Source: Clostridia bacterium
GTDB taxonomy: Bacteria; Bacillota; Clostridia; Christensenellales; Aristaeellaceae
DNA: 24,390 bases
Direction of reading: 5' to 3'
NCBI GenBank assembly: GCA_024404275.1
Contig: JAKSQG010000005.1
Coordinates: 1-24,390, forward strand
Part shown: positions 1-21,617 of the stretch, piece after piece
Numbering within the stretch: the first letter of the stretch is position 1
Layout: every line of letters begins with the position of its first letter
Program-made: the position numbers and the translations under genes
Notes under the pieces: model-generated
Database searches by the model: none
What the model was told of the DNA's origin: nothing
The model's input: only the letters and a program-made list of their open reading frames with translations

Positions 1-1533
1 GACCTGAACTCCGCTGCCAACGGCTTGTTCCGTGTATTGCCGTCCGGCAGACTGCGTCCGCTCATCCGTTTGATTGCGTTTTTGGGTTACCGTAGCTGGA
101 AACCGGTGGAGCTGTTGGAGTATACCTGCGATATCACTGACAGTGAGAAGGAGCTGTCCGCTCAATTGAACAGCCTCAATACGGAGGGCTGGCTGGTGTG
201 GAATGAGGATGGTTACCTGATGCACCCCGTGATTGCGTAGAATCTGCGTCAGGAGCCGGGCGGCTGCGACGAGTATCCGAAGCTGTGGCAGAAGCTGAAC
301 AAAATGTTTGCGGAGCCCATGACTGAAAAAACGCAGGGCTTTGTACCGCAGGCCGAAAACCTGCTGCGCTATACCGCCAATCTGGACCGGACAGCGCTTT
401 CACTGATCATCGGGCTTGAACAAAGCGTCATGACCCGTCCCACGGGCAGCATTACTGATGATCTGCCCAAATTGCACCGCAAATGGCTTGATACCCATGA
501 GCATACGGCGGTGGATGAGATCGATTATCATATCATGCAGCTGCTGTGGGCGATACTGAGATCGCGCCCCGGGCAGTATCGTGACTCCGTGGAAATGCTG
601 AGCGCCTGTGAAGAAAAGGATCTTTTGAGCACTGCCAACTATTCGCTGCTGCTCAACGTACTGGAGGTTGGCGGCAAATATGCCGAACCGGAACAGCTGA
701 ACCTGCTGTTTGAACGGCTGCGGCCCGATGATGACAAACGGATGGTGGATTACTGCAACTTTCTTGGCGGCAAGCTGCGTGCTGTGGATCAGAATCAGCA
801 GCGTGCGGCGGAGGTGCTTCGCCAAGGGCGGGAGCTGATTGAAAAGCTCTGCCTGACGGGAACAGTGCAGGAGGCCGCCAACGATTCCCGCATGGCGTAT
901 ACGCTGGCGGATATGGGTCTGTGGTCGGAAACACTGCCGTTGATGCGCCGTGTGATGGACAACATGAAAACACGCGGTTATGCCGATGATTCGCCTACGG
1001 TGACCCCCATCCGCAGCACCTATTATTTTTTCCTCAGCAAGTGCGGGGAGTATCAGCAGACGCGAAAATAGCTTGGCGATCATCTGAAGCATGTGCTTGA
1101 GAAGGATGAACGTTTTGAAGCCGTCGTGAGGGCGTATACCTCCTATCTGCGCCTTCTGATGGATCACGATGAGTTTGAAGAGGGCGAAAAGATCGCCAGG
1201 AACCTGATTGCATACTGCCGCGGCTGCGTGAATTCAGACCCCGAATTGGAGGGCGAGGCCTTTCTGGCGGGCGGCCGGGTGCTGCTGCTGTGCAGTAAAC
1301 CGGCGGAAGCCATTGGCTTGCTGGCAGAGGCACAAGGCCTGTTTGAAAATGTGGACGAGGGCTCGGTTTTGCAATGCCGGTTCTACACTTCCCGCTGCCT
1401 TGCGGCACTGGGACATACTGAAAAGGCCTCTGCCATGCTGAAAAATGTGCACAATATGCTTCTGAAGCGGCACGAAGGCAACCGGAAACTGCTGACGCTG
1501 GTGGAGCAGGCAGAGGCTGAGGAAACAAAATAA
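1..1533 (+). CDS. 3' part of a large STAND/NTPase-like signalling protein: winged-helix-like segment followed by TPR-like helical repeats. The 5' end lies off-window. Read through two in-frame TAG codons (238-240, 1069-1071).
   Basis: Track ORFs 25-240 (open to position 1), 304-1071 and 1093-1533 are all in frame 1 and separated only by single TAG codons. There is no Shine-Dalgarno before ATG 304 or GTG 1093. Helical-repeat-like sequence continues across both junctions (..GWLVWNEDGYLMHPVIA[TAG]NLRQEP..; ..CGEYQQTRK[TAG]LGDHLKHVLEKDERF..). Final stop TAA 1531-1533. Under the standard code this is three fragments. Confidence 0.55.
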
Positions 1534-1558
1534 ACAAATCAGAAAGGAAACTGCCATC

Positions 1559-2593: not shown

Positions 2594-2619
2594 ACAGAAT
2601 AACAGCGTTCCATGCATAC

Positions 2620-2656: not shown

Positions 2657-2681
2657 ACAAATCGGCGGAATTGTTGTGAAA

Positions 2682-2725: not shown

Positions 2726-2757
2726 GAACACAGAAACAGGATGAAAGAAAAGAGTAT

Positions 2758-3237
2758 GTGATGCTTGTGTCAGGAAAAAACGCCATGGACAAACCGAATA
2801 AACGTTTTTCGACCGATGAACTGACCAATGGTATTTTGCGTACGCGGGATTTTAAACGCTATCTGAACAGCCATGCCGAAGCTCTGCAGGAGGTTTCACT
2901 GCGGGAATATCTGGAGCAGCTCCTCCGTGAAAAGGGCTTGAAACGAGCGGAGGTGATTCAGCGTGCCAATCTGGACCGGGTGTTTGGATATCAGATTTTT
3001 GATGGACGCAAATCGCCCTCGCGGGACAAGGTACTGCAGCTGGCCATCGGGTTTGGCTTGAATTATTCATAGACCTGCGAACTTTTGCGCATCGCCCGAA
3101 AAACCGCCCTCTATGCCCGGCTCAAACGGGAGGCCATTCTGATTTACGCCATCGGGCATGGGCTTTCCGTGATGGAAACCCAGTATCTGCTGATGGAAGC
3201 CGAATTGACTCCTTTGGGACAGGAGAAGGACAGATGA
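2758..3237 (+). CDS. XRE-like helix-turn-helix transcriptional regulator, read through in-frame TAG 3070-3072
   Basis: Track ORF 2758-3072 ends at TAG inside the conserved C-terminal segment of this HTH family. The same frame continues TCELLRIARKTALYARLKREAILIYAIGHGLSVMETQYLLMEAELTPLG to TGA 3235-3237, which overlaps the kinase ATG 3234-3236 (ATGA). The start is uncertain (GTG 2758, ATG 2761 or ATG 2785). Confidence 0.72.
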
Positions 3238-4127
3238 AGGATTTTGATGTGGTGGCTTCCCTGCAGGAGGCGCTGAATGGCATCGAGGACCCGCTGCCGG
3301 AGGAAATTGCGGCGGACTGGGAAGCCATGGAATGCCTTGGGCACAGCGAAAGAGGGGAAACGCTTTTGCTGTACAGCAGGAAGAGTGCAGGGAAAGCGGT
3401 TCTGAAGCTGATGCAGGGAGAAAGCGATGATGCCGGTCCCGTGGAAAAACTGCAGATGCTTACGCATCCGGGTCTGCCAAAGGTGCTTCGTGCATGGAAG
3501 GATGGCGAAAGGCTGTGCATCCTGCGGGAGTATATTGAAGGAAGAACACTGGCAGATACAGAAGGTAACTTCTCCGAGTCAAAGGCAACGGATATCATCC
3601 TGCAGCTGTGTGATGTTCTGTCGTATCTGCATGGGCAAACGCCGCCGCTGATTCACCGGGATGTAAAGCCCGAAAACATTCTGCTGCGCGAGGATGGAAC
3701 GATCGCGCTCATTGATTTTGGTATTGCCCGCTTTTATAATGGACAGCACGAAAAAGATACACGTGTGATGGGAACGGAGCATTTTGCTCCGCCGGAGCAA
3801 TACGGCTTTCGTCAGACCGATTGCCGGTCGGATCTGTATGCGCTGGGCATGGTGCTGGGGTGGATGCTGACAGGCAGTGTACATCGTGAGGAATACGAAG
3901 CAATTGCCGACAGCAACCTGAAAAGAATCGTAAAAAAGTGCACGGCTTTTTCCCCCGAAGATCGCTTTTCTTCTGCTATAGAAGTAAAAAAAGCGCTGAG
4001 TCAACGGAAAAGCCCACGGAAGACGCTGATTGTGACGGCAGTGTGTTGGTCTGCCTTTTGCTGCTTGGAAGAATGCCGTTATTTGGGCAAAGCGGACCGA
4101 AACACATCTGCTTCACGGAACCGATGA
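3234..4127 (+). CDS. Hanks-type Ser/Thr protein kinase with a C-terminal hydrophobic segment
   Basis: Motifs HRDVKPENILL, IDFGIA and GTEHFAPPE. AGGAGAAGG lies upstream of the ATG. Stop TGA 4125-4127. The C-terminal tail after ~4040 may be out of frame (see the finding on the GT repeat). Confidence 0.9.
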   Translation: MKDFDVVASLQEALNGIEDPLPEEIAADWEAMECLGHSERGETLLLYSRKSAGKAVLKLMQGESDDAGPVEKLQMLTHPGLPKVLRAWKDGERLCILREYIEGRTLADTEGNFSESKATDIILQLCDVLSYLHGQTPPLIHRDVKPENILLREDGTIALIDFGIARFYNGQHEKDTRVMGTEHFAPPEQYGFRQTDCRSDLYALGMVLGWMLTGSVHREEYEAIADSNLKRIVKKCTAFSPEDRFSSAIEVKKALSQRKSPRKTLIVTAVCWSAFCCLEECRYLGKADRNTSASRNR

Positions 4128-4945
4128 TTGAGCAGGCGATCAGAAAAATGCTCGGCACCGGCAGCGAGTCCGTCCTGAACCGGGAGGAACTGGAAAAGGT
4201 CGAGGGGCTTTATATTTTCGGCGATGTGATCGCCATGAATGAAGATGAGTTTTATGAAGCGGCCAATCGTTGGTACGCCGGCGGCAGCAGGCTATATGGC
4301 ACAATCACGCGGCTGGATGATGTTGTACTTCTGCCAAATCTTCGACGGGTGATGATTGCCGCCAATGAGGTTGAGAATATCTCGCCTTTGTCTGCACTGA
4401 CCAAATTGGAAAAGGTGGAATTCAAGCATAACCGCATCAGCGACATTACGCCGCTGAAGGGGCTGAAGATGCTTTGTTCTGTGGGCTTGAACGACAACCC
4501 CGTGACCGATGTGACGGTGCTGCTGACGCTGCCGGAACTTCGTTATCTGGATTTGTGTGACGCCTCTGCTTATGATGCGGTTGGGTTGGCAGGGCTTCAT
4601 GATATGGAGCTGCTGGATATTTCCAATCGTACCGACAGCGGACGGTACCTTGGCACAAAACATATCCGTGATCTGAGGATGGGATGGACAAATCTGGACA
4701 GCCTGGACGCGCTTGCCGGGGTGATGGGGCTTGAAAGATTGAGCATTGAGCATACACGCATTACCAGTTTGGAAGGCATTGAACGCCATGCGGGACTGAC
4801 CTATCTGCGTATGTCCGGTTGTGAGGTGAAGAATCTGACGCCGCTTCTATTGCTTCCTGAACTGAAGACACTGGTCATTGACGGTGCCCGCCGGGGGGAT
4901 GTGGAAGTGCTGGGTGAAGTGCGTTTTGAGGTGCTGTATGAATGA
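4124..4945 (+). CDS. Leucine-rich-repeat (internalin-like) protein; possibly the detached ectodomain of the preceding kinase
   Basis: About 22-residue LRRs (..NRISDITPLKGLKMLCSVGLNDNPVTDVTVLLTLPELRYLDL..). ATG 4124 overlaps the kinase TGA (ATGA). The frame is open from 3938 and looks coding from ~4040. Stop TGA 4943-4945. Confidence 0.75.
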   Translation: MIEQAIRKMLGTGSESVLNREELEKVEGLYIFGDVIAMNEDEFYEAANRWYAGGSRLYGTITRLDDVVLLPNLRRVMIAANEVENISPLSALTKLEKVEFKHNRISDITPLKGLKMLCSVGLNDNPVTDVTVLLTLPELRYLDLCDASAYDAVGLAGLHDMELLDISNRTDSGRYLGTKHIRDLRMGWTNLDSLDALAGVMGLERLSIEHTRITSLEGIERHAGLTYLRMSGCEVKNLTPLLLLPELKTLVIDGARRGDVEVLGEVRFEVLYE

Positions 4946-5159
4946 CCCAAAGAGAAAAAAGAGAATGAAAAACCAGATGAAACGGAAAGCCGCCCTGCTG
5001 CTGTAGACTTTTGCGAGCGCGGCGAAGCGGTGGAACGCCTGATGGAATCACAATGAGCGGTGGATATATGCGAAAGGAGGATGAAAATACCGCAGCACAG
5101 AATGGAAAGGAACCGCAAAACACGAAAAGAAGCAATGAAAAATGAGGAGGAAAAAGGAT

Positions 5160-6227
5160 ATGAAGAAATTATTGCTTGCATTGTTGGTACTGACGCTTGT
5201 GCTGATGTCGTCCGCGATGGCGGAAAAAGCACTCGTAAACACTCCGGAGGAGTTGACAGCAGCCTTGATGAATGATGCGGTGGATGCCATTGAGATCGCC
5301 GCGGACATGACCGTGACCGATTCCTATGTGATGCAGACCAAGGACATTACCATTTTGTCTGATGTGGTCTTTCAACCTGCGCCGGATGAGGGCTTTTTTG
5401 TAAAGAGTTGGGAGATTCCGGAGGGCGTGACGCTGACCGTAAAGGGAAAGGTGACGACAGTACATACCTTTGAAGAGGGATTCGTCATCGCCCAATTTTA
5501 TTTGAATGGCGGTACGATGGATATCGGTGAGGGCACGGTCAGTGATGACTGCAACATCTGCTTCAATGCCGGTACACTGGTTGCTCCCGCGGCGGGCTTT
5601 GGTCCCAACGTGGAGGTAGCGCGTTATCTGTATATGGATGTGACGGAAGACACCATTGCGGAAGCACTGGCACAGGAAGGTTTGCGAAATGCGACGGTGC
5701 AGGCGGAATGCACGATCGAGGGCAATCTGGTGGTACCGGAGGGCAAGGTGCTTGAAATCAGCAGCGTGATGACGCTTATGGATGGCGCGGCTGTGGAGGG
5801 TGACATCATTGTGGATGCCGGGTGCGGCGTCATCTTGAAAGGCAGCGGCCGTTTCAATGATATGATTGTGCCTGAGGGCATGGAGTCTTGCAAGATCCTT
5901 TGGGCGGAGGATGGAAATTGTACGGTGCTGGAGTACAGCGAAACACCTGTGAGTGTGACTATCGGTGAATGGGTGGAGGCAAAAGGCCTGTACAGCAACT
6001 GCATGCTGACCGTGACGGTGAAAGAGATCATCAACCCCGCGCTGGCTCGGGTGGAAGATGAAACCGGGGAAGTCAACCTGTATGGTCTGCAGATCAACGG
6101 AGATTTCTTTGATATTGAGGAGGCAGGGGTGAAACCCGGCGACGTGCTGACATTGAGCAATCCGAAATACAATGTATATGACGGCGTTGTCGAGATGTCC
6201 GATGCCATGCTGATGACGGAGGAGTAA
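5160..6227 (+). CDS. Secreted protein of unknown function (signal peptide; C-terminal OB-fold-like segment is my guess)
   Basis: GGAGG at 5145-5149 lies about 10 nt before ATG 5160. MKKLLLALLVLTLVLMSSAMA is a signal peptide. Stop TAA. The track ORF starts earlier, at 5142. Confidence 0.8.
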   Translation: MKKLLLALLVLTLVLMSSAMAEKALVNTPEELTAALMNDAVDAIEIAADMTVTDSYVMQTKDITILSDVVFQPAPDEGFFVKSWEIPEGVTLTVKGKVTTVHTFEEGFVIAQFYLNGGTMDIGEGTVSDDCNICFNAGTLVAPAAGFGPNVEVARYLYMDVTEDTIAEALAQEGLRNATVQAECTIEGNLVVPEGKVLEISSVMTLMDGAAVEGDIIVDAGCGVILKGSGRFNDMIVPEGMESCKILWAEDGNCTVLEYSETPVSVTIGEWVEAKGLYSNCMLTVTVKEIINPALARVEDETGEVNLYGLQINGDFFDIEEAGVKPGDVLTLSNPKYNVYDGVVEMSDAMLMTEE

Positions 6228-6234
6228 AGCACAC

Positions 6235-6271
6235 AAAAACAGCAGGTCTTATCACAATGACCTGCTGTTTT
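6235..6271. terminator. Bidirectional intrinsic terminator between convergent genes
   Basis: AAAACAGCAGGTC (6236-6248) pairs perfectly with GACCTGCTGTTTT (6259-6271) across a 10-nt loop. A-run and T-run flanks serve both strands. Confidence 0.8.
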
Positions 6272-6295
6272 AATGCTTTTTGGTTCATTCGGCCA

Positions 6296-7714
6296 TCAAA
6301 GCGGCGGAATAGCGTCCAAAATGGTTTTTTCCAACGCTTCGCGGCCGTAGCTATCCACGGCAGCCTTGTTCTTTTCACCGTGGGTCAGGTTGCCGGCGCC
6401 GCCGATGCAGCCGCTGATACAGGCCATGCCTTCGATAAAGTTAGCGTCCAAGGCATTATGGGCTTTTTTGATAAGCGCCATGCGACACTCCTCAATACCG
6501 TCACAGACGCAGGCCTTCAGCTGGAAGTCATCCAGATGCTGTTCCTTCAGTCCTTCGGCAACGGCATCGCTCAGACCGCCGCTGCGGGCAAAAATGCGGC
6601 CGAAGTAGCTGGCGTTATTCAGCACATCCTCGGGCAGGGTGGTAATATCGATATCACGGCTGTCGAGCAGTGCCTGCAATTCTTCAAAGGTGATGACGGC
6701 ATCCACATAGGGTTTGACGTCTTCCAACTGTGCTTCGGCCTTTTTCGCGGTGCAGGGACCGATAAATACGATCTTGGCGGTTTCATCATGGTCCTTGATA
6801 TATTTGGCAAGGGTAGCCATGGGCGAGAGATTGTGAGAAATATAGGGCACCAGCGCCGGGAAGGCGGTTTTGACATAGCGGACAAAGGCCGGGCAGCAGG
6901 AGGAGGTCAGGAAGCCTTTTTCCACCAATTCCTTGGATTCCGCCTGGGCAACCATATCAGCGCCCAAAGCGGCTTCGATGACGGTATGGAAGCCCAGCTC
7001 CTTGATGCCGCTGATGACCTGTCCCAGCTTGGCATAATTGAGCTGGCTGCCGATGGCAGGAGCTACCAGGGCATAGACTTTGAATACGCTGTTGTCCTGG
7101 CTTTTTTTCAGCATATCGATCACATTGATGATAAAGGAACGATCCGTAATGGCACCAAAGGGGCACTGATACACACAGGCACCGCACTGAATGCATTTTT
7201 CATCATCGATCTTGGCAGCATTGTCATCATTGATGGAAATGGCCTTGATCTTGCAGGCGTTCTGGCAGGGACGCTTGCGGTTGACGATGGCGCTGTACGG
7301 ACACACCTTGGCGCACTGACCGCATTCCACACACTTGGATTTGTCAATGTGCGCTTCGTGATTGTGGTCAAAGGAGATAGCGCCGCGCTTGCAGACATCC
7401 TCGCAACGGTGGGCCAGACAGCCGCGGCAGGAATCGGTCACCTGATAGCCGACGGCAGGGCAGTCATCACAGGCGATATCAATGACTTGAATGATATTGT
7501 CTCCATTACCGCCTCCCATCGCCAGCTTGACGCGTTCAGCCAGGATGGCGCGTTCCTTGTACACGCAGCAGCGCATGGTGGGGACTTTGCCCGGCACGAT
7601 CATTTTGGGAATGTCCAGCACGTTTTCCAGCAGTGTGTCATTCCATGCCTGACGGGCGACTTCGCGCAGCACCTTGTATTTCAGATATTGTACCTTGGTA
7701 TCAAATTTGCGCAT
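6296..7714 (-). CDS. [FeFe] hydrogenase homologue with ferredoxin-like 4Fe-4S domains (HfsD-like)
   Basis: H-cluster motifs TSSCCPAF, GPCTAKKAE and EGMACISGCIGGAG. Several CxxCxxCxxxCP ferredoxin motifs. AAGGAG RBS. Stop TGA. Confidence 0.85.
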   Translation of the reverse strand: MRKFDTKVQYLKYKVLREVARQAWNDTLLENVLDIPKMIVPGKVPTMRCCVYKERAILAERVKLAMGGGNGDNIIQVIDIACDDCPAVGYQVTDSCRGCLAHRCEDVCKRGAISFDHNHEAHIDKSKCVECGQCAKVCPYSAIVNRKRPCQNACKIKAISINDDNAAKIDDEKCIQCGACVYQCPFGAITDRSFIINVIDMLKKSQDNSVFKVYALVAPAIGSQLNYAKLGQVISGIKELGFHTVIEAALGADMVAQAESKELVEKGFLTSSCCPAFVRYVKTAFPALVPYISHNLSPMATLAKYIKDHDETAKIVFIGPCTAKKAEAQLEDVKPYVDAVITFEELQALLDSRDIDITTLPEDVLNNASYFGRIFARSGGLSDAVAEGLKEQHLDDFQLKACVCDGIEECRMALIKKAHNALDANFIEGMACISGCIGGAGNLTHGEKNKAAVDSYGREALEKTILDAIPPL

Positions 7715-7723
7715 GCGTTCTCC

Positions 7724-8893
7724 TTAAAAATAGCTTACTTTGATTCGTTTACCCATTTTTTTGAGGGCTTGGGACAATTCTTCCACCAAATTCATTTTGA
7801 TGTTGAAGTTGATGGGCAGGTTGGGGTTCTGATGCGCCGGGTTGACGGCTCTGCCTACATAGAAATTGATGTCGGTGGCTTCTTCAAAAAGCAGACGGCT
7901 GATGAGGCAGGCACCGTCCTTGCCGTTGCTCCAGGTCTCATAACACAGGTTATCGCCCGTGTAATCCTTGGCGTATTCCACCACACGGTTGATGGTGATC
8001 ACGCCTTCCGTTACCAGATCGACGCCCTCCAGATAGGCAATGGGCGGAATGTCGCTGTCAAAGTCCAAAGAAGCCCTCAGGGGCTTGTTCAGCCATTTGG
8101 CGGCGATGGAGGAGGTGGTGCCGCCGCAGACGATGTGCTTTCCTTCCTTGGAGAAGAACAGGCTCATCATGCGGTCACCGTCATCACGGTTGCTGGGCGG
8201 TCCGAAGAGCAGATTCATGGGCACGCGCTTGCGGACACGGACCACACAGGAGGTGGCATCATCCCCGGGCTCGCCGCCATACAGCTCATTGCATTTATCC
8301 ACCAACAGGGTGGAAAGGTTCTTGGCGGTATAGCCGCACAGATTCATGGCCTCCATGAAGGGGATGATATCTTCCCGCTTCCAGCCGAAGTTATAGGCAA
8401 TGCCGATGCCTGCGTGGGGGCAGCCGTCGCTCATGGCGATAAAAACATCGTCTTCCTGCAGCCGGATGAGGGAACGGAAGATCTGTTTGCCGCCGATGGT
8501 GCTCTCTGTGCGTGGATATTCATAGTTTTCACCGTTGCGCAGCATGATGACCTGCGGGTTATCATACTGGATCAGCTCTGCCGTCTGATTGCGGATCAGG
8601 CGGATGATGGTGAAGGTGGAATAGGCGACGCCGCGGATGGAGCAGACGGGCAGCGTGGCGGCAATGGTTTCCACGCATTCCTCGATGGAAAGCCCGGCAG
8701 CCAGCATGGTGGAAATGATCTTGCTGGTCAGGGTGGACAGAATGCTGGCTTTGACACCGCTGCCAAGCCCATCTGCCAGCACGATGACGGTGGAGCCGTC
8801 TTCCTGTTCCACAATTTCCACATGATCGCCGCAAAGCTGCTCGCCGGCGTGATTGATGCTTTTGTAGCCGATATCACACGTCAGGTCATTCAT
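7724..8893 (-). CDS. SpoIIE/PP2C-family protein phosphatase (HfsC-like)
   Basis: N-terminal GDHVEIVEQEDGSTVIVLADGLGSGVKASILS and ..AMSDGCPHAG.., DDATSCVVRV are PP2C/SpoIIE-type motifs. The start overlaps the hydS stop by 8 nt (ATGAATGA). Stop TAA. Confidence 0.85.
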   Translation of the reverse strand: MNDLTCDIGYKSINHAGEQLCGDHVEIVEQEDGSTVIVLADGLGSGVKASILSTLTSKIISTMLAAGLSIEECVETIAATLPVCSIRGVAYSTFTIIRLIRNQTAELIQYDNPQVIMLRNGENYEYPRTESTIGGKQIFRSLIRLQEDDVFIAMSDGCPHAGIGIAYNFGWKREDIIPFMEAMNLCGYTAKNLSTLLVDKCNELYGGEPGDDATSCVVRVRKRVPMNLLFGPPSNRDDGDRMMSLFFSKEGKHIVCGGTTSSIAAKWLNKPLRASLDFDSDIPPIAYLEGVDLVTEGVITINRVVEYAKDYTGDNLCYETWSNGKDGACLISRLLFEEATDINFYVGRAVNPAHQNPNLPINFNIKMNLVEELSQALKKMGKRIKVSYF

Positions 8894-10562
8894 TGTTGAT
8901 GGACTCCTTCAGCTTTGAGAGGGCAATCTTGGTTTCGGCGGCAGTTTCACCCAGCAGACTGGCAATTTCCTGCACGATACGCATCTGTTTGTCGACGACC
9001 TTGTCGGCTACTTCGACCGTCTGGCGCCGGATGTCTTCCTTCTGCTGACGGGCAGCTTCTTCCTCGCTGACGTCACGCATAATGCACAGCAGCATACGTC
9101 CGCCCTCAGCGGGAACGATGGTCTGCTCCACGGTACAGTTGTATTCCGCCAGATAGGTGCGCTCGTTAAAGATACCGCGGCCGGAGTTTTTTACCTTCAT
9201 GAAGGGGATGGGGTCCAGAATGCGGACAACCTGATCTCCCAGCACGGCACTTTCGGAGCGCAGATTCAGGATCTTGCGGGCAGCGGGGTTGATCTGCTGC
9301 ACTTCCAGCTGATCGTTGAGCATCAGGATGCCGTTGGGGCTGTTGCGGGCAATGGTATCGCTGACGTTTTCCGCTTTTTCCATCAGGTAAGGCAGGCACA
9401 TGGAGGGCTCCGCCTTGCCCTGATAAATGGCGATGGCTTTTTCACGGCAGGTATTGTAGCCGCAGGAGCCGCAGTTCAGCTCCTGAGAGGGTTTGAACTT
9501 GCCCATTTCACGCAGAATATCGCGGATCTCAAATTCAGTGGGCAGGGCGGCGCGCTGCTCGATGGGGGCAAAATGCTTGCGCAGCTCCTGTGCTTCGGGC
9601 TGATCGATCTCAAAGTCCTTATCACCGGCGTAACGGGCGACAGCCAGATAATCCTTCACCGGGCTGTGACCGTATTTTTCCATCACGGGACCGCCGGCAC
9701 AACTGCCCACGCAAGCGCTCATCTCGATAAAGCAGCGATGGATCTTGCCCTGCTCGATCTCCTTCAGTGCGGCGATGCAGTTTTCAATACCATCGAAAGC
9801 GATATAGGTATAGCCCGGGGCATCCTGTGCCATGGTTTTCAGTACGCCGCCGGTGGTGGGAAAGAAACGTGCCAGACTATGTTCATCCGGCTGCTTTTCC
9901 TGACGAAGTTCAACGCCTTCCTTTTTAAGCCAGTTGGTCAGCTCTTCAAAGGTCAGCACCGCGTCAACGATGCCCTCGTAGTGCTCCGCTTCATCCTTCT
10001 TTGCCACGCAGGGACCGACAAAGACGGTCTTGGCGCCGGGAATACGGCGCTTGATGTCCTCACAGTGCGCCTGCATGGGGGAAAGTACATCCGCCAGATA
10101 GGGCAGCACACGGGGGAAATGCTTCTGAATGAGCAGGTTGATGGAGTGGCAGCAGGAAGAGATGACGATGTCACGGTTTTCTTCCTGCAGAATGCGCTCG
10201 TATTCCCGCTTTACAAGCGTAGCGCCCAAAGCGGTCTCTTCCACATCGTGGAAGCCCAGCTTTTTGAGCGCTTCCCGCATGGCTTCAATGCCCACACCAT
10301 CATAGTTGGCAACAAAGGACGGCGCCAGAGAGACGACCACCGGGGCGCCGCTCTGAATGAGAACCTTTGCCTTTTCGGTCTGGTCCACGATCTCCTTGGC
10401 ATTCTGCGGGCAGACGACAAAGCAATGACCGCAGAGGATGCACTCATTGTCGATGATGTGAGCCTGGTTGCCGGAAAAACGGATGGATTTTACCGGGCAG
10501 TGACGGATGCACTTATAGCAGTTTTTGCAGTTGGATTTTTTTAAAGTCAGGCAGTTTGGCAT
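8886..10562 (-). CDS. hydS: Putative sensory [FeFe] hydrogenase with C-terminal Cys motif and PAS domain (HydS / HfsB-like)
   Basis: N-terminal 2x[4Fe-4S] ferredoxin motifs. H-cluster motifs ISSCCHS, GPCVAKKDE and EMSACVGSCAGGP. CGSCGYNTCx16C motif, then a PAS-like segment (NSPNGILMLNDQLEVQQINPAARKIL..). Stop TGA. Confidence 0.85.
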   Translation of the reverse strand: MPNCLTLKKSNCKNCYKCIRHCPVKSIRFSGNQAHIIDNECILCGHCFVVCPQNAKEIVDQTEKAKVLIQSGAPVVVSLAPSFVANYDGVGIEAMREALKKLGFHDVEETALGATLVKREYERILQEENRDIVISSCCHSINLLIQKHFPRVLPYLADVLSPMQAHCEDIKRRIPGAKTVFVGPCVAKKDEAEHYEGIVDAVLTFEELTNWLKKEGVELRQEKQPDEHSLARFFPTTGGVLKTMAQDAPGYTYIAFDGIENCIAALKEIEQGKIHRCFIEMSACVGSCAGGPVMEKYGHSPVKDYLAVARYAGDKDFEIDQPEAQELRKHFAPIEQRAALPTEFEIRDILREMGKFKPSQELNCGSCGYNTCREKAIAIYQGKAEPSMCLPYLMEKAENVSDTIARNSPNGILMLNDQLEVQQINPAARKILNLRSESAVLGDQVVRILDPIPFMKVKNSGRGIFNERTYLAEYNCTVEQTIVPAEGGRMLLCIMRDVSEEEAARQQKEDIRRQTVEVADKVVDKQMRIVQEIASLLGETAAETKIALSKLKESINNE

Positions 10563-10566
10563 GGCG

Positions 10567-10806
10567 TTACACCCTTGCTTTGATTACATTTTCGAAAAAG
10601 GTGGGAACAGTCTCGGGGGAAACGGAAAAGAATTCACCGTCTACCGTGACGCAAACGCCCTGCTGGCATTTGCCCATGCAGAATGTGCCGCCCAGCTCGA
10701 TCTTGTCACTGAGGTTTTCCTTCGCAATCAGCGCCTGAAGCTGCTCCACCACGGGACGAGAGCCTTTGATGTGGCAGGAAGAACCGATACAAACCGTAAC
10801 CTTCAT
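10567..10806 (-). CDS. Small thioredoxin-like [2Fe-2S] ferredoxin (HfsA-like)
   Basis: 79 aa with four Cys in VCIGSSCH ... FCMGKC. GGAG RBS 9 nt upstream of the ATG. Stop TAA 4 nt before the hydS ATG. Confidence 0.75.
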   Translation of the reverse strand: MKVTVCIGSSCHIKGSRPVVEQLQALIAKENLSDKIELGGTFCMGKCQQGVCVTVDGEFFSVSPETVPTFFENVIKARV

Positions 10807-10832
10807 CTTTTTTGTCTCCTTTTTGCGATGTT

Positions 10833-10877
10833 TTATAAAAACAGGAAAAGGAGGGGTGATGGTTCCCTCCGTTTTCC
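10833..10877 (-). terminator. Intrinsic terminator/attenuator hairpin between the APH-fold kinase gene and the hfsA-like gene
   Basis: Minus strand: GGAAAA(C)GGAGGG-AACCATCAC-CCCTCCTTTTCC followed by TGTTTTTAT. It lies only ~35 nt upstream of the hfsA-like ATG. Confidence 0.7.
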
Positions 10878-10908
10878 TTCATCATACGAGTCAGAAAATC
10901 AATGATTT

Positions 10909-11658
10909 TTAATGATATTCCACCACGTTGGCCCAGGACAGCAGGAATTCTCTTTCCTTTTCCTTGCCCTTGACGGACTGGCTGGCGGCGACGATGGGCA
11001 TCCACTTCTGCACATACTGCAGGGGGGTGCCGCTCTTTTCACAGAACAGCTTCAGGTATTCCTTGGCGCCGTCGATATCGCCGTTCAGCCAGAACAGCAG
11101 ATAGGTACGGGCAACATCGGCGGAGGCGTTGCCCTGCGTGACATGGCTCCAGTCGATCACGTAAGGGGTGCCGTCCTCGCTGATGATCACGTTGGAGGGC
11201 CAGAAATCGCCGTGACACACTTTGCTGTGATTGGGCATACCCTCCAGACGGGCGTGAAGATCAAAACGGGTGGTGGCATCCAGGTCAGCCTGGCTGATCT
11301 TGCGCTCCATCTTGTCCCTGAGGCGGTTCAGATGGGAACAGCTCTTGCTCTGGATCTCCAGCTGCAGATCCACAAACTGATTGAGGTATTTGTCCTTGTT
11401 GTCCGGGTCTTCTTTCATCAGCTGGGACAGGGTTTTGCCCTTGATGAACTCAGAGATGATGGCCCATTTTCCATCGATCATGGTGACACCCAGGAGCTTG
11501 GGAATGTGCAGCCCGGTCTCTTCAATGCGCGCCTGGTTGAGCGCTTCGTTGAGGATGTCGGCTTTGGAGTGACTTTCATCGAACACCTTGATGCAGCGGT
11601 CACCGTCACGGTAAATGGTTTTGTCGTTGCGTACGGCAATAACGCGATCCAGATTCAT
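10909..11658 (-). CDS. Aminoglycoside-phosphotransferase/choline-kinase-fold (APH-like) kinase
   Basis: CHGDFWPSNVII and YVIDWSHV (HxDxxxxN / DxS Brenner-type motifs). GAAGGAGG lies 8 nt before ATG 11658. The track ORF starts 7 codons earlier. Stop TAA. Confidence 0.8.
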   Translation of the reverse strand: MNLDRVIAVRNDKTIYRDGDRCIKVFDESHSKADILNEALNQARIEETGLHIPKLLGVTMIDGKWAIISEFIKGKTLSQLMKEDPDNKDKYLNQFVDLQLEIQSKSCSHLNRLRDKMERKISQADLDATTRFDLHARLEGMPNHSKVCHGDFWPSNVIISEDGTPYVIDWSHVTQGNASADVARTYLLFWLNGDIDGAKEYLKLFCEKSGTPLQYVQKWMPIVAASQSVKGKEKEREFLLSWANVVEYH

Positions 11659-11675
11659 CTTTTTTGTCCTCCTTC

Positions 11676-14378
11676 TCACAGCTTACGGCCGGGACGATAG
11701 GCTTTTTTCACCGCGTCGTTTCCCGGCTCGGCAATGTTAGCCTCAGTGGGCTTGGCCATCTCGGTAAAGTGCTTGCCGCCGTAATAGGCGTTCAGGTACA
11801 TCTGCTTGATCTCGCTCATCAGCGGATAGCGGGGATTGGCACCGGTGCACTGATCGTCAAAGGCCTGCTCCACCATGTCATCCAGTCTGGTCAGGAAATC
11901 CTGCTCATCGGGAACATAATCCTTGATAGTGGGCTTGATCCCCACATAAGCCTTCAGATTGTTGATCATCTGAATCAGGGCTTCCAGCTTTTCATGGTCG
12001 GTGCCCTGGTTAATTCCCAGCGCCTCGGCCACCTGCGCGTAGCGGCGCAAGGTATGGGGATGATCGTACTGAGGGAAGGTGCCCATCTTGGCAGGAGCTT
12101 CGCAGGCGTTGAAGCGCAGCACTTCTTCGATCATCAGAGCGTTGGCTACACCGTGAGGAATGTGATGGAAAGCACCCAGCTTGTGCGCCATGGAGTGGCA
12201 GACACCCAGGAAGGCGTTGGCAAAGGCCATGCCGGCCATGGTGGCTGCATTAGCCATTTTCTCACGAGCTTCCACATCTGTCAAGCCATTGTCATAGGCT
12301 TGAGGCAGATATTCAAAAATGGTTTGCAAAGCTTTGATGGCAAGGCCATCTGTATAGTCCGTCGCCATCATGGAGGCATACGCTTCAAGGGCGTGGGTGA
12401 CGGCGTCGATGCCGCTGGCGGCGGTCAGACCCTTGGGAGCGGTCATATGGAAATCGGTATCGATGATCGCCATGTTGGGCAGCAGAGCATAATCGGCAAG
12501 GGGATATTTGACACCGCTCTTTTCGTCGGTGATGACGGCAAAGGGCGTTACCTCACTGCCGGTACCGGCGGAGGTGGGAATGGCGACAAAATAGGCCTTT
12601 TCGCCCATCTTGGGGAAGGTATAAACACGCTTGCGGATATCCATGAAGCGCATGGCCATGTCCTGGAAATCCACTTCGGGATGCTCGTACAGCACCCACA
12701 TGATTTTGCCGGCGTCCATGGCGCTGCCGCCGCCCAGAGCGATGATCACATCGGGCTGGAACAGACGCATCTGTTCCGCGCCGGCCTTGGCGCAAGCCAG
12801 GGTGGGATCGGGCGCGACGTCAAAGAAGGTTGCGTGCTGAATGCCCAGTTCATCCAGCTTCTTGGTGATGGGGGCGGTGTTTCCGTTGTGATAAAGGAAA
12901 GAGTCGGTGACGATAAAGGCCTTCTTTTTGCCCATAACTTGCTTCAGTTCGTCCAGCGCCACCGGCAGGCAGCCCTTTTTGATATACACCTTCTCCGGCG
13001 TACGGAACCACAGCATGTTTTCTCTCCTTTCAGCCACGGTTTTGATGTTCAGCAGGTGCTTGACGCCCACGTTTTCGGATACGGAGTTGCCGCCCCAGCT
13101 GCCGCAGCCGAGGGTGAGCGAGGGGGCCATCTTGAAGTTATACAGATCGCCGATACCGCCCTGCGAGGAGGGGGTGTTGACCACGATACGGCAAGTCTTC
13201 ATCTTGGCGGCAAAGGCATCCAGCACATCGGGCTTCTTCTGCGTATCGATGTACAGGGAGGCAGTGTGACCGTAGCCGCCATCGGCAATCAGACGATCGG
13301 CTTTGGCGAAGGCATCATCCAGATCCCTGGCACGGTACATGGCCAGCACGGGGCTCAGCTTTTCATGGGCAAACTCTTCACTGAGGTCCACAGATTCCAC
13401 TTCACCGATGAGCACCTTGGTGCCTTCGGGAATGGTGACACCGGCCAGCGCGGCGATCTTACAGGCGCTCTGACCGACGATCTTGGCGTTCAGGGCACCG
13501 TTGATCAGGATGGTGTGGCGCACCTTGTCCAGATCGGCACCGGTCAGGAACCAGCAGCCTCTTTGAGCAAATTCGGCTTTCACCTGATCGTAAATGCTGT
13601 CCAGCACGATCACGCTCTGCTCGGAAGCGCAGATCATGCCGTTATCAAAGGTCTTGGAATGGATGATGGAGTTGACAGCCAGCACAACATTGGCACTGTC
13701 ATCGATGACAGCAGGCACGTTGCCCGCACCGACGCCCAGTGCCGGCTTGCCGCTGGAATAAGCCGCCTTGACCATGCCGGGACCGCCGGTGGCCAGAATG
13801 ATATCGGCTTCGCGCATGACCATGTTGGTCATTTCCAGAGAAGGGACATCGATCCAGCCGATGATGCCTTCAGGAGCGCCGGCTTTGACCGCAGCATCCA
13901 GTACCACCTTGGCAGCGGCAATGGTGGCCTTCTTGGCGCGGGGATGGGGGCTGAAAATGATGCCGTTGCGGGTCTTGAGGCAGATCAAAGCCTTGAAGAT
14001 GGCGGTAGAGGTCGGGTTGGTCGTGGGGATGACGGCGGCGACCACGCCAATGGGCTCAGCCAGCTTTTTGATGCCGTAGGCTTTGTCCTCCTCGATGACG
14101 CCGCAGGTCTTGGTATCGCGGTAAGCGTTGTAAATATATTCACTGGCATAGTGATTTTTGATGACTTTGTCTTCCACTACGCCCATGCCGGTTTCTTCAA
14201 CGGCCAGCTTGGCCAGAGAAATACGGGCCTGATTGGCAGCGGTGGCAGCGGCCAGGAAAATGCGGTCCACCTGCTCCTGAGTATAGGTCGCATAGATGCG
14301 CTGCGCTTCGCGTACGCGCTTAATGGCGGCTTCCAGCGCTTCGGTGTTGTCCACCAGATCAAATGCTTTGGTTTCCAT
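11676..14378 (-). CDS. adhE: Bifunctional acetaldehyde-CoA / alcohol dehydrogenase
   Basis: 900 aa. ALDH domain with catalytic FDNGMICASEQ. Fe-ADH domain with GGGSAMDAGK and His-rich metal motifs. AGGAGG lies 6 nt before ATG 14378 (the track ORF begins 38 codons upstream). Stop TGA. Confidence 0.97.
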   Translation of the reverse strand: METKAFDLVDNTEALEAAIKRVREAQRIYATYTQEQVDRIFLAAATAANQARISLAKLAVEETGMGVVEDKVIKNHYASEYIYNAYRDTKTCGVIEEDKAYGIKKLAEPIGVVAAVIPTTNPTSTAIFKALICLKTRNGIIFSPHPRAKKATIAAAKVVLDAAVKAGAPEGIIGWIDVPSLEMTNMVMREADIILATGGPGMVKAAYSSGKPALGVGAGNVPAVIDDSANVVLAVNSIIHSKTFDNGMICASEQSVIVLDSIYDQVKAEFAQRGCWFLTGADLDKVRHTILINGALNAKIVGQSACKIAALAGVTIPEGTKVLIGEVESVDLSEEFAHEKLSPVLAMYRARDLDDAFAKADRLIADGGYGHTASLYIDTQKKPDVLDAFAAKMKTCRIVVNTPSSQGGIGDLYNFKMAPSLTLGCGSWGGNSVSENVGVKHLLNIKTVAERRENMLWFRTPEKVYIKKGCLPVALDELKQVMGKKKAFIVTDSFLYHNGNTAPITKKLDELGIQHATFFDVAPDPTLACAKAGAEQMRLFQPDVIIALGGGSAMDAGKIMWVLYEHPEVDFQDMAMRFMDIRKRVYTFPKMGEKAYFVAIPTSAGTGSEVTPFAVITDEKSGVKYPLADYALLPNMAIIDTDFHMTAPKGLTAASGIDAVTHALEAYASMMATDYTDGLAIKALQTIFEYLPQAYDNGLTDVEAREKMANAATMAGMAFANAFLGVCHSMAHKLGAFHHIPHGVANALMIEEVLRFNACEAPAKMGTFPQYDHPHTLRRYAQVAEALGINQGTDHEKLEALIQMINNLKAYVGIKPTIKDYVPDEQDFLTRLDDMVEQAFDDQCTGANPRYPLMSEIKQMYLNAYYGGKHFTEMAKPTEANIAEPGNDAVKKAYRPGRKL

Positions 14379-17420: not shown

Positions 17421-18590
17421 GTGAACTATCGGGTTACGGATGGGGTGCTGACGCTGTTTCCGCAAGGCCGGATCGACTCCGGCAATGCAGACAGCACGGA
17501 AAAGGAAATGCGGGCTGTGTGCGTGGCAAACGCCGTCCCGGGACTCATACTTGACCTTGAAAAACTGGCGTATATCTCCAGCGCCGGGCTTCGGGTGGTG
17601 CTGCGGCTGCGCAAGGACTATCCTGAAATGAAAATGATCAATGCTTCCGCCGAAGTATATGACATTCTGGATATGACCGGTTTTACCGAAATGATCCCGG
17701 TGAGCAAGGCGTATCGCCGCCTGAGCATTGAGGGATGCGAGATGATCGGTCAGGGGGCAAACGGCACGGTATACCGTCTGGATGGGGAGACCGTGATCAA
17801 GGTGTACCGCCATGCCGACAGCTTGCCGGAAATCCGGAGAGAAAGAGAACTTGCCCGCAAGGCATTCGTGGCAGGTCTGCCGACTGCTATCCCCTATGAT
17901 GTGGTACGTGTCGGGGAGGGCTATGGCTCGGTGTTTGAAATGCTGAATGCCGGTTCAGTGGCCGATATCCTCAAAAAGGAGCCATAGCGACTGCCGGAGT
18001 GCGCGCACATGATGACCACACTGCTGAAGAAGATCCATGCTACTGAGTTAAAGCCCGGGGAATTTCCCGATGCAAGGCAGACAGCCCTGGACTGGGCGGA
18101 TTTTTTGCAGGACCATCTTCCGCGTGAGCAGTATCAGAAGCTGCGTGGACTGATCGAGGCAGTGCCGCGGGATACGCATGTGCTGCATGGGGATTGTCAT
18201 GTGAAGAATGTGATGATCCAGAATGGGGAGACGCTGCTGATTGACATGGACACCCTGTGTCAGGGGCATCCGGTGTTTGAGTTTGCGGCGATCTATATCG
18301 ATTATCAGGGATACGGCGAACTGAATTCCGAAGATGTCACGACATTTTTCGGCATCCCTCATGAAATCTGCGCGGAATTGATGCGTTTGATCATTGTAGA
18401 GTATTTTGAACTGAAAGAGGAAGCCGCCTACCGCGCAATACTGGACAAGGCGCGCGTAATCGGCTATGCACGGCTGATGCGCCGTACCATCCGCCGGATG
18501 GGGCATACGGAACAAGGAAAGCAGCTGGCTGCCTACTACGCAGAGCGGCTGACGGAGCTGCTGGACTGTGTGGATTCACTGACATTTTAA
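17421..18590 (+). CDS. STAS (anti-sigma-antagonist-like) domain fused to an APH/protein-kinase-fold domain, read through in-frame TAG 17985-17987
   Basis: Track ORFs 17421-17987 and 18009-18590 share a frame. STAS motif LAYISSAGLRVVL. Kinase N-lobe IGQGANGTVYRL..VIKVY lies before the TAG. Catalytic HGDCHVKNVMI and LIDMD lie after it. GTG start with GGGAAGGGAG upstream. Stop TAA. Confidence 0.7.
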
Positions 18591-18607
18591 AGAAAGAAGG
18601 ATCGAAT

Positions 18608-18904
18608 ATGAACATTACCAAGAATCAGAACGGCGAACTGCTTGAAATGGCGCTGGAAGGACGACTGGATACGGTGACCTCTCCCAAGCTTGAAAAGGAA
18701 CTGAGCACTTCTCTGAACGGCATCAAGGAATTGGTGTTCGATTTTGCCAAGCTTGAGTATGTTTCCTCCGCCGGTCTGCGTGTACTGCTGACGGCGCAGA
18801 AGGTGATGAATACACAGGGCAGCATGAAGGTGTGCCATGTGAATGAAAACATCATGGAAGTATTTGAAATTACCGGCTTTGCGGATGTGCTGACCATTGA
18901 ATAA
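18608..18904 (+). CDS. STAS-domain protein (RsbV/SpoIIAA-like anti-sigma factor antagonist)
   Basis: 98 aa with LEYVSSAGLRVLL (phosphorylatable-Ser motif). GAAGGA upstream of the ATG. Stop TAA. Confidence 0.9.
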   Translation: MNITKNQNGELLEMALEGRLDTVTSPKLEKELSTSLNGIKELVFDFAKLEYVSSAGLRVLLTAQKVMNTQGSMKVCHVNENIMEVFEITGFADVLTIE

Positions 18905-18946
18905 GCAGCGGGACAACTCGTAGCATCGGCAAGGGAGATATGGAGA

Positions 18947-19762
18947 ATGACGACGGAAGAACTGCTGAAAACGGTGGAAGAGATTCATGTGCCTTTGGAG
19001 GACACCTACCTGAATGTCATCCGCTTTGGACGTGGAAAAAAAGTGCTTGCGTTGCTTTCGGGTGTCAGCCTGTGCGGTCTGGAGGGAGCGGGAGCAGGCG
19101 TTGCGGCTGCTTACGCCGATTTTGCGGAGGAGTATACGGTTTATCTGTTCGACCGCAAAAAGCTGCTGCCAAAGGGCTATCAGGTGGCGGACATGGCGGA
19201 GGATGTTTATCGGGTGCTCTGCACCTTTGGCATTCAGGAAGCCGACGTGTACGGCGTCTCCCAGGGCGGCATGATGGGACTCAGCCTGGCACTGGCGCAC
19301 CCCGGTCTGGTGCGGAAGCTGGCACTGTGTTCTACCCAGGCTCGGGCGGGAAGCGTCATGCGTTAGACCGTTGCCGAGTGGCTGCAATATGCCAGACGAG
19401 GGGACACAGCAGGCATTCAGCGTTGCTTTGCGGAAAAAGTCTACTCACCGGCTTACCGTGAAAAGTACGCATCGGCTTTCCGGGCTATGGAGCAGCAGGG
19501 ATCGGCTGAAGACTGCGCCCGTTTTGTGGTATAGGCGGAGGCATGCCTCACTTTTTGCGTTTATGAAGAGCTGGACCGGATCCATTGTCCCGCGCTGGTG
19601 CTGGCGGATGTGAATGACCGTGTGATCGACGTGTCCTCTGCCCGGGAGCTGGCGCATGGGTTGAACTGCCCGCTGCAGTTGTATGATCAATACAGCCACG
19701 CGGTGTTTGATGAAGCGCCCGAAGTAAAACAGCGGGTGCTGAACTTCCTGCGGCAGGAATGA
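18947..19762 (+). CDS. Alpha/beta-fold hydrolase (RsbQ-like size and context), read through two in-frame TAG codons (19364-19366, 19532-19534)
   Basis: Track ORF 18947-19366 carries the nucleophile elbow YGVSQGG. The same frame continues through both TAGs to ..CPALVLADVNDRVI..LYDQYSHAVFDEAPE..FLRQE and TGA 19760-19762. That supplies the Asp and His of a catalytic triad. The merged protein is 271 aa. Confidence 0.75.
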
Positions 19763-19826: not shown

Positions 19827-21617
19827 ATGAAGCTGCCGCTGCAACGGCATCCAAAGGAATCCTACAGTACCATGACGCGGGCAGTACTGTGGCAGAATGA
19901 AATAGAAGCCAACCGACTGACCACGGTTTTTATGTGCATCTGTTCGGCGGTCATGGCACTCAGTATGCTGCTGACGGCTGTTGGTATTTTTACGGAGAAT
20001 GCGCAGACAGTGTATACCACGGGCATCGCGACGATCGTGTGGCATATGCTGCCGTGCCTGGTGAGCTTTCGATACAAATACGCAAAGCCGTGGCTGAAGA
20101 ACCTGCTGCTGGCGGGGTTGATTCTGGGACAGGCACGATTGGACTGCGGGCTGGGTTTCAATACGGCACTTTCCATACTGATTCCGGTTGTGTTCAGTAC
20201 GCGGTATTACTCCCGAAAGTTTACGCTTTCCGTGGCTGCCATTACGACCGTGGTGTTTTCTGTCACGACCTATCTGGGCGCTGCGACGGGCTTTACCCCG
20301 GTGGATAAAAATATTCTTCTGGAAGCGTCCCGGTATGCGCATGATGTCATGATGACCAGCTTTCTTCCCAAGTGGTTTTTATTTGCGGTCATCTCGGCTG
20401 TGTGCGCGGAGGTTGCCCACTGGGGGCGTGCTATGGTTGAAAAGCAGGCCGTCATCAGTCAGGAGCATAGCCGTGTGGAAACGGAGCTGCATACGGCAAC
20501 CCAGATTCAGTTGAAATCGCTTCCCGATGTGAAAACGCTGTGCGAAGGACATGAGGCTCCCTTTGAACTGGCGACCAGCATCCTTCCGGCCAAAGAGGTC
20601 GGCGGCGATTTTTACGATTTCTTCTATGTTGACCCAACGCACCTGGCATTGGTCATTGCAGATGTTTCCGGCAAAGGCGTGCCGGCAGCGCTGTTTATGA
20701 TGGTTTCTAAAATCCTGCTGGATAACAGCGCTTCCGCAGGGCGAACGCCCGGCAAGGTGCTGACGATGGTCAACCATCAGCTTTGCGAAAAAAACATCAT
20801 TGACATGTTTGTGACAGTGTGGCTGGGCATCATCGACTTGACCACCGGCGAAATTGTCAGTGCCAACGCGGGACATGAGAACCCCATCATTTGTCGTAAG
20901 GACGGCACTGTGGAAGTCATCCGTACCAAGCACGGCATGGTGCTGGGCGGCATGGAAGGCATGCGTTACCGGGATGAAACCCTTCAGCTGCACCCCGGCG
21001 ATACGCTGTTTGTGTATACAGACGGCATCCCCGAAGCGCACAACAGCGCCGCGCAGATGTATGGCATGGAACGACTGGTTTCGGTGCTGACAGGCAAAAC
21101 ACAGATGAATGCGCAGGCCCTTGTGGACTTGGTGAAGCAGGATGTGAATGCTTTTGCCGGTTAGGCACCGCCGTTTGACGACTCGACCATGCTGGCGATT
21201 CGCCTGAATGGCCTTGTGAAGCGGGAGGGACTGCAGATTCGTCCCGACACGGCATCGGTCAGCACCGTGCAGGAGTATGTTGCGCAGGCAATGGAGCAAG
21301 CCGACATTCCCATGAAGCAGGCCACCAAGGTCAACATCGCATTGGATGAAATGTACAGCAACATTGTGCATTACAGCGGAGCGGGCTGGGCAGAGGTGAT
21401 CTGCCGGGCTGACAAAAGCGGGGTCACGCTCATCTTGCGGGATAACGGCGTGCCGTTCGATCCGCTGCAGAATGCCGCCCCTGACATCAATCAGAGCGCG
21501 GAAGAGCGCCGCATCGGCGGCCTTGGCGTGTTTATGACCCGCAAGATGATGGACGAGATGTGCTACCGCTATGCGGACGGATGCAATGAACTGACTATGA
21601 CGCTGAAGATCAGCTGA
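19827..21617 (+). CDS. Membrane-anchored PP2C (RsbU/SpoIIE-type) phosphatase fused to an RsbW/SpoIIAB-like HATPase domain, read through in-frame TAG 21162-21164
   Basis: Track ORFs 19818-21164 and 21189-21617 share a frame. N-terminal multi-TM region. PP2C motifs EVGGDFYDFF, ADVSGKGVPAALFM and VYTDGIPEA lie before the TAG; [TAG]APPFDDSTMLAIRL follows it. Then HATPase N-box DEMYSNIV, DNGVPFDP and GGLGVFM. AGGAG lies 9 nt before ATG 19827. Stop TGA. Confidence 0.75.

Follow-up and report, generated by a model that had tools for sequence, protein, structure and literature searches.

In-frame TAG codons in uncultured Clostridia suggest that UAG is read as a sense codon, probably glutamate

Judging from gene sequence comparisons, an uncultured group of gut and rumen Clostridia has very probably reassigned UAG from stop to sense across its whole lineage. 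The case begins with a stretch of 24,390 nucleotides (the window), which is contig JAKSQG010000005.1 of a metagenome-assembled genome (MAG) deposited at NCBI as 'Clostridia bacterium' (GCA_024404275.1; locus tags MJ136_00645-00770). In it, a gene for a SpoIIE-type PP2C phosphatase fused to an RsbW-like HATPase domain (the PP2C-HATPase gene) is interrupted by a TAG at position 21162. A sequence-only reading of this gene had implied a special read-through of that one gene, a view which did not survive because six more TAGs interrupt five other genes of the contig. With TAGs spread across many genes and shared with relatives, the interruption appears to be a property of the organism's genetic code and not a regulatory device that links two domains.

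The interrupted phosphatase gene

The PP2C-HATPase gene (Table 1) has an AGGAG 9-10 nt upstream of its ATG and a layout consisting of an N-terminal membrane region, the SpoIIE/PP2C phosphatase domain and the HATPase_c_2 (RsbW-like) domain. On the plus strand, the codons around the TAG are GCT TTT GCC GGT TAG GCA CCG CCG TTT GAC GAC TCG ACC ATG CTG, giving the translation VKQDVNAFAG*APPFDDSTMLAIRL (the asterisk being the TAG). The sequence-only reading had placed this TAG four codons before the motif that closes PP2C domains, which it gave as F/Q-x-DD-x-T-(M/L)-L, and both the position and the motif proved real: F-D-D-x-T-M follows the TAG, with F450, D451 and D452 present in 119/119 homologues and T454 and M455 in 118/119.

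When the merged translation of 596 amino acids (aa) is searched against Pfam, the frame is continuous through both domains. PF07228 matches with 176 bits (cut-off 25), aligning without a break through the TAG over profile positions 2-191 of 192, and translation of the TAG (aa 446) is required for so full a match. The phosphatase is thus incomplete unless the TAG is decoded, as had been proposed. In an alignment of 20 sequences, D261, D279, D399 and G400 are invariant and D451/D452 nearly so, and the acidic motifs of PPM phosphatases (GGDFYD, ADVSGKG, YTDG and FDDxT) are conserved in the protein; we take the conserved acidic residues to be metal ligands, as in PPM structures generally. The codon occupied by the TAG is itself less constrained (A37 S22 D15 T13 E10 among 119 homologues), and on this alignment it is a variable surface position.

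The HATPase domain lies in the same frame and has the N-box/G-box motifs DEMYSN, DNG and GGLG. It does not reach the level of an RsbW equivalog (22.7 bits against an NCBIfam cut-off of 145) or of SpoIIAB (23.3 against 135), so the protein belongs to the RsbW/SpoIIAB domain family without having orthologue status.

Hundreds of database proteins of 580-630 aa share this architecture of about 600 aa without interruption. The closest solved structures are RssB, Rv1364c, SiaA and SpoIIE, of which SiaA (PDB 6k4e) and SpoIIE (5mqh/3t91) align over the TAG site. In our best reading, the gene encodes one ordinary 596-aa protein in which the TAG is a rare codon, and that protein is an ordinary 'ATP-binding SpoIIE family protein phosphatase' with a membrane-anchored PP2C domain. 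The fusion of PP2C and HATPase is already known and common, and the novelty lies elsewhere.

Another way to explain such genes is that they are split but functional, i.e., translation would stop at the TAG and restart nearby (e.g., at ATG 21189) to give two polypeptides that assemble. ATG or GTG starts are called shortly past several of the TAGs, and the NCBI annotation of this gene consists of a 445-aa phosphatase fragment and a 142-aa 'ATP-binding protein' (MCQ2453100.1) called from ATG 21189. However, that start is a false one: its codon is that of the near-invariant PP2C Met (M455), so it is not a conserved independent start, and there is no Shine-Dalgarno sequence in the 30 nt before it. 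The residues APPFDDST, which include the invariant catalytic Asp pair, would be lost between TAG and restart, and restarts would be needed at seven sites in six genes. We consider splitting extremely improbable, and the sequence-only reading was right that the HATPase has no start signal of its own. Neither of the two outcomes which that reading had named as refuting it was observed.

Table 1. Positions of the PP2C-HATPase gene, its parts and the other genes discussed with it (window coordinates)
Feature	Position	Strand	Remarks
PP2C-HATPase gene	19827..21617	+	596 codons including one in-frame TAG; homologues of 580-630 aa with both Pfam domains
In-frame TAG, codon 446	21162..21164	+	sole stop of the frame between ATG 19827 and TGA 21615-21617
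SpoIIE/PP2C domain, aa 270-460	20634..21206	+	PF07228; TAG (aa 446) inside
F-D-D-x-T-M closing motif of PP2C domain	21174..21191	+	starts four codons past TAG
HATPase_c_2 domain, aa 473-592	21243..21602	+	PF13581, 73 bits (cut-off 27.4)
STAND/TPR gene (~980 aa), C-terminal half	1..1533	+	TAGs at 238-240 and 1069-1071
HTH (XRE-like) regulator gene	2761..3237	+	TAG at 3070-3072
STAS + APH-type kinase fusion gene	17421..18590	+	TAG at 17985-17987
Stand-alone STAS gene (anti-sigma antagonist-like, 98 aa)	18608..18904	+	PF01740
Alpha/beta hydrolase gene	18947..19762	+	TAGs at 19364-19366 and 19532-19534

TAG inside genes and at their ends

Across the contig, our gene map contains 20 genes with 7349 codons, and these include seven in-frame TAGs (in six genes) and no in-frame TGA or TAA. 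At gene ends the picture is reversed: 19 terminators comprise ten TGA, nine TAA and no TAG, and none of approximately ten further genes in two related assemblies (L163 and L166, described below) ends in TAG. For comparison, TAG makes up 10-13% of stops in related Oscillospirales loci.

In each of the six TAG-bearing genes, a Pfam domain or uninterrupted homologues span the interruption. For example, the PF00561 match in the hydrolase (aa 76-258) covers both of its TAGs, and the STAS-APH fusion has 120 continuous homologues of approximately 390 aa, while six distinct 188-aa proteins cut at TAG 17985 are present in public assemblies. In the HTH gene, the extended frame ends with a stop which overlaps the ATG of the next gene (ATGA).

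The length of open frame after a TAG was also tried as a test of recoding and rejected because it does not discriminate: 24-34% of ordinary relatives' TAG stops are followed by at least 60 open codons.

TAG sites in related assemblies

Relatives were found by exact-protein look-ups and comprise one NCBI MAG and several independent Logan assemblies with 87-99% nucleotide identity to the window, bringing the lineage sequence examined to approximately 60 kb. In total it contains 15 distinct TAG sites in nine genes, with every interruption a TAG and none a TGA or TAA. At these sites, close relatives have GAG/GAA (eight cases), CAG/CAA (four) or AAG (one).

The NCBI MAG (L163; GCA_045599485.1, JAZRWA010000035.1) is collinear with window positions 1-12063 at 87-89% nucleotide identity. 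It has TAG at 238 and 3070 and GAA at 1069, and it carries TAGs of its own where the window has GAG (313), CAA (1757), GAA (codon 31 of the HydS-associated PP2C gene) and CAG (codon 224 of the HydS-like sensor gene), plus two additional TAGs upstream in the STAND gene. L164 (SRR28408152) keeps TAG 238, has GAG at 1069 and at L163's TAG 7365, and has a new TAG at the window's CAG 538. L167 (SRR27361835, 93% identity) shares TAG 19364, has GAG at 17985 and 19532, and has a new TAG at the window's CAG 18129. TAG 3070 is kept not only in L163 and L166 but also in eight cluster members.

TAG 21162 is kept in L001 (SRR21150928, approximately 98.6% identical to the window), and the separately called ORF (open reading frame) of 142/144 aa downstream of it is found in five further Logan sequences. 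We also observed that at L001:1841-1849, GGA replaces the window's TGA 21615-21617, so that the L001 gene ends two codons on, at TAA. In L162 (SRR17543910), with five differences in 2110 nt, the codon at 21162 is AAG. L166 was assembled from the sample that also gave L162. It is 99.9% identical to the window and still has TAG at 238, 1069 and 3070, and L162's AAG is therefore best read as an ordinary substitution in a recoded background.

A sequencing or assembly artefact is conceivable in a metagenome-assembled contig, particularly one with a suspicious 1-nt deletion elsewhere. However, the same TAGs recur in the second NCBI MAG and in assemblies made independently from at least five sequencing runs, and cluster listings show TAG-truncated fragments recurring in many further ENA and Logan assemblies. 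An artefact is thus the least credible of all the alternatives, with practically no probability left to it.

A further alternative is programmed read-through specific to the PP2C-HATPase gene: a local signal would yield a truncated, inactive phosphatase plus some full fusion, as a regulatory device. The TAG sits just before the last catalytic motif, so reading on would switch activity on, and several assemblies commonly carry this allele. Such a device does not account for the TAGs in the five unrelated genes of the contig or those in relatives. Nor does it fit the near-identical strain with AAG, or the relatives at 64% identity with ordinary codons, and since the TAG column is variable, there is no conserved recoding site. 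No common sequence context was found around the TAGs, and the 120 nt after five of them have no shared or significant RNA fold (z-scores -0.02, 0.27, -0.80, -2.02 and -0.48). We regard a gene-specific device as very unlikely. The evidence favours lineage-wide reassignment. As far as comparison of sequences can establish it, TAG is evidently translated throughout the lineage or, failing that, does not act as a terminator there.

Two more distant relatives bear on where the change is found. L168 is the nearest full-length PP2C-HATPase relative (64% amino-acid identity, GC content 61%) and has the same gene order (STAS, hydrolase, PP2C-HATPase). Three of its 17 genes end in TAG and none are split, so L168 uses the standard code. 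L165 (69-74% nucleotide identity, GC content 49.5%) has two genes whose terminal TAGs are followed by no more than short open extensions (303-734 and 8385-8987) and a serine/threonine kinase-LRR gene (1222-2937) with an internal TAG aligned to a Leu CTG. L165 probably uses TAG as a stop, though its lineage may be recoded, ambiguous or pseudogene-bearing.

Selection past the TAGs

Purifying selection continues in the same frame past the TAGs. Between the window and L163, where synonymous divergence (dS) is 0.3-1.2, the ratio of nonsynonymous to synonymous rates (dN/dS) is 0.06, 0.08 and 0.09 in the three TAG-separated segments of the STAND gene. In the HTH gene it is 0.10 before the TAG and 0.04 after, and in a 344-aa gene 0.11 before L163's TAG and 0.15 after; a control in the +1 frame gives 1.2-2.3. 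There are no indels within the TAG-bearing genes compared. Between the window and L001, the counts of synonymous and nonsynonymous differences are 15:4 upstream of TAG 21162 and 7:2 downstream.

These values bear on the possibility that the genes are pseudogenes, i.e., accessory regulatory genes decaying through nonsense mutations. Decay has some points in its favour: the contig has a frameshift in its own kinase-LRR gene, the L165 TAG in the kinase-LRR gene is aligned to Leu, and both GAG>TAG and CAG>TAG are single-step routes to nonsense. However, TAGs shared by two species together with a low downstream dN/dS are not the pattern expected of truncated pseudogenes. With TAGs shared at a dS of 0.3-0.6, a dN/dS of 0.04-0.15 after them and no indels, decay is refuted for the genes tested. 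All 15 interruptions are TAG, and in some strains these sites have reverted to, or been exchanged with, sense codons. In L163, HydS and its phosphatase are among the genes with TAGs. As a general explanation, decay is about as improbable as gene-specific read-through.

Amino acid assignment

The residue that a TAG encodes can be estimated from the alignment columns in which TAGs stand. The clearest column is that of TAG 3070, with Glu in 101/113 homologues (89%) and in 11 of the 12 nearest full-length relatives. Glu is also found in 25/31 homologues (81%) at TAG 238 and in 16/31 at TAG 1069, is the commonest residue at TAG 17985 (E48 A33 S13 D12 in 120 homologues), and is the residue of L168 at TAG 19364. 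Summed over ten TAG sites, the column log-odds are +9.1 for E, +1.6 for D, -3.2 for Q and -13.6 for K.

The codons exchanged with TAG among close relatives provide a second line of evidence. With TAG as a Gln codon, most exchanges should be synonymous C-to-T changes (CAG to TAG), which is not what the relatives have. The 8:4 ratio of Glu to Gln codons may instead be about what one would expect if TAG encodes Glu, from synonymous G-to-T changes plus tolerated Gln-to-Glu transitions. Given recoding, these alignments make glutamate the probable meaning of TAG, with glutamine a distinctly weaker candidate which we consider unlikely, and another or mixed decoding taking what probability remains.

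Pyrrolysine (Pyl) deserves separate consideration because UAG is its codon. On this view the lineage would carry pylTSBCD, and UAG would specify Pyl throughout the genome, the situation in archaeal code 34. Genome-wide use of TAG for Pyl is indeed known in archaea, and one TAG exchanges with the Lys codon AAG. However, the TAG columns are mostly conserved Glu, the exchanges are chiefly with GAG/GAA and CAG, and the log-odds for Lys are the lowest of the four residues. In the approximately 60 kb examined there is no pyl gene or methylamine methyltransferase, and no PYLIS-like structure follows the five TAGs examined. The authors of the code 34 preprint also state that this code was not observed in bacteria (Kivenson et al., bioRxiv 10.1101/2024.09.30.615893). 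Pyrrolysine is thus another improbable explanation, on a par with gene decay.

A possible decoding mechanism

A tRNA with anticodon CUA would decode UAG, and it could plausibly be a derivative of tRNA-Glu or tRNA-Gln. Most Firmicutes have no glutaminyl-tRNA synthetase, and their non-discriminating glutamyl-tRNA synthetase (GluRS) accepts both C36 (tRNA-Glu) and G36 (tRNA-Gln). Such an enzyme could therefore also glutamylate a CUA derivative, which would stay charged with Glu unless GatCAB took it for tRNA-Gln.

Release factor 1 (RF1) is the only factor that reads UAG. It would have been lost, disabled or weakened in this lineage, with RF2 serving the observed UAA and UGA stops. We give roughly even chances to the complete scheme, in which the clade uses UAG for glutamate and UAA and UGA as its sole stops, has lost RF1, and has a tRNA(CUA) charged by a non-discriminating GluRS.

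Points which weigh against reassignment

Some observations count against UAG reassignment, or against glutamate as its outcome. The absence of TAG terminators from approximately 29 genes is a small sample and only modestly significant (P of approximately 0.03 at the 10-13% baseline). The tRNA scan identified only tRNA-Arg(CCG) in L163 and nothing in the window, so no tRNA(CUA) is present in either. Regarding the amino acid, four of the close-relative partners are Gln, and one L167 TAG stands in a column that is 67% Gln.

The in-frame TAGs are concentrated in regulatory or accessory genes (STAND, HTH, STAS-kinase, hydrolase and PP2C-HATPase), and in the window there is none in AdhE, the catalytic hydrogenase, the PBP gene or LysR. 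A rare codon of recent capture, avoided in highly expressed genes, could be distributed in this way.

Lastly, the contig is not free of gene decay or assembly error. Its kinase-LRR gene (3234-4945) lacks 1 nt near 4042 relative to L163, and this frameshift splits it into calls of 297 aa and 265 aa; in L163 and in one Logan/ENA contig the gene is continuous, at 570 aa. The missing nucleotide could reflect faulty assembly or a frameshift particular to the strain.

Neighbouring genes and wider scans

The PP2C-HATPase gene adjoins the STAS-kinase fusion, the stand-alone STAS gene and the hydrolase gene, and from its domain content this module is of the partner-switching type. Part of it is easily missed, as an ORF of 266 aa on the minus strand (18587-19387) is an antisense artefact which masks the plus-strand STAS and hydrolase genes.

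A similar artefact is found further upstream, where an ORF of 880 aa on the plus strand (6257-8899) is antisense to the real minus-strand genes at 6296-7714 and 7724-8893, which encode an [FeFe]-hydrogenase and a SpoIIE-type PP2C phosphatase. Beside them, at 8886-10562, is a HydS-like sensory hydrogenase gene (named 'histidine kinase' by NCBI). Together, the hydrogenase, PP2C and HydS-like sensor resemble a HydS-phosphatase regulatory cluster.

Beside AdhE, the window has a small APH-type kinase gene (10909-11679, minus strand), which is unusually well conserved, being 75-87% identical at the amino-acid level across 80 rumen/gut Oscillospirales MAGs. The AdhE-APH pairing recurs in L052, L059 and L163, with the remaining neighbours differing. 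When GTDB contigs were scanned with this kinase, none of the 80 loci found had PP2C-HATPase or STAS-APH genes, and their use was confined to the baseline for stop codons. A scan of JGI metagenome contigs with the PP2C part gave a best match of 50% identity and no close relative. L052 was considered as a possible recoded genome because nine of its 13 ORFs end in TAG, and it was ruled out, as TAG is a frequent true stop there.

Implications

If this reading is correct, no earlier case would be known of a cellular bacterium with a reassigned UAG, nor of a change from stop to Glu outside eukaryotes. The lineage would also be a natural counterpart of the engineered RF1-free E. coli, in free-living Clostridia of normal GC content. 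Codon capture would here be seen at an early stage, TAG making up approximately 0.1% of codons and being polymorphic between strains.

There would be practical consequences as well. Annotation with table 11 would split or truncate approximately one quarter to one third of the genes in such regions, and a host which reads TAG as sense would alter how TAG-recoded phages in the same habitat are interpreted. Code-prediction tools are not known to cover a change of this kind as yet.

Comparison with known systems

The protein itself has a close parallel in M. tuberculosis Rv1364c (PDB 3ke6), which likewise fuses an RsbU/SpoIIE-type phosphatase to an RsbW-like HATPase. In Rv1364c, the chain also includes PAS and STAS domains, whereas the window protein has an N-terminal membrane region and lies next to separate STAS-domain genes. 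The comparison with phosphatase/ATP-binding fusions which the sequence-only reading had suggested thus places the protein in a familiar family.

All described bacterial stop reassignments involve UGA and RF2: tables 4 and 25 assign UGA to Trp or Gly in Mycoplasmatales, several endosymbionts, Absconditabacteria/Gracilibacteria and, as recently described, Eggerthellaceae (PMC8629427; 10.64898/2026.05.24.727570; PMC13462651). Shulgina and Eddy 2021 likewise noted that the known bacterial code changes all reassign UGA. The gTranslate preprint (10.64898/2026.05.24.727570) lists only tables 4, 11 and 25 for bacteria and describes the archaeal use of TAG for Pyl as the first genome-wide UAG change in prokaryotes. 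We found no report of a bacterial UAG reassignment in the literature to mid-2026, in a search which left most subscription journals outside its scope. The lineage described here is like the bacterial UGA codes in that the change from stop to sense is lineage-wide, the stops are in frame in conserved genes, and the codon is absent as a terminator. It differs in that the codon is UAG, which would implicate RF1, and in that the genome has a GC content of 54% and is not AT-rich or visibly reduced.

Gut phages with code 15 (crAss-like, Lak and other phages) also read TAG as sense in gut and rumen, assigning it to Gln by means of phage suppressor tRNAs. Those are phage genomes with TAGs enriched in late genes, whereas here the column statistics favour Glu over Gln and the context is not that of a phage: the neighbours are chromosomal (AdhE, [FeFe]-hydrogenases, LysR, PBP and signalling genes) and syntenic between species.

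Archaeal code 34 is similar in that TAG is a genome-wide sense codon in a prokaryote, in that coding density barely changes, making the code hard to detect, and in that it is recognised by internal TAGs with homology on both sides. However, it needs the Pyl machinery, no related gene of which was seen in the lineage sequence examined, and the residues aligned with TAG here are Glu and Gln.

A match in amino acid comes from eukaryotes, where UAR, and with it the amber codon, is read as glutamate in peritrich ciliates and in Blastocrithidia nonstop (PMC12153298). In those nuclear codes the change covers UAA as well as UAG and goes with an altered eRF1, whereas here UAA still ends nine of 19 genes. 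What is probably new for bacteria is thus the pairing of codon and amino acid in a stop reassignment, namely UAG with, most plausibly, Glu.

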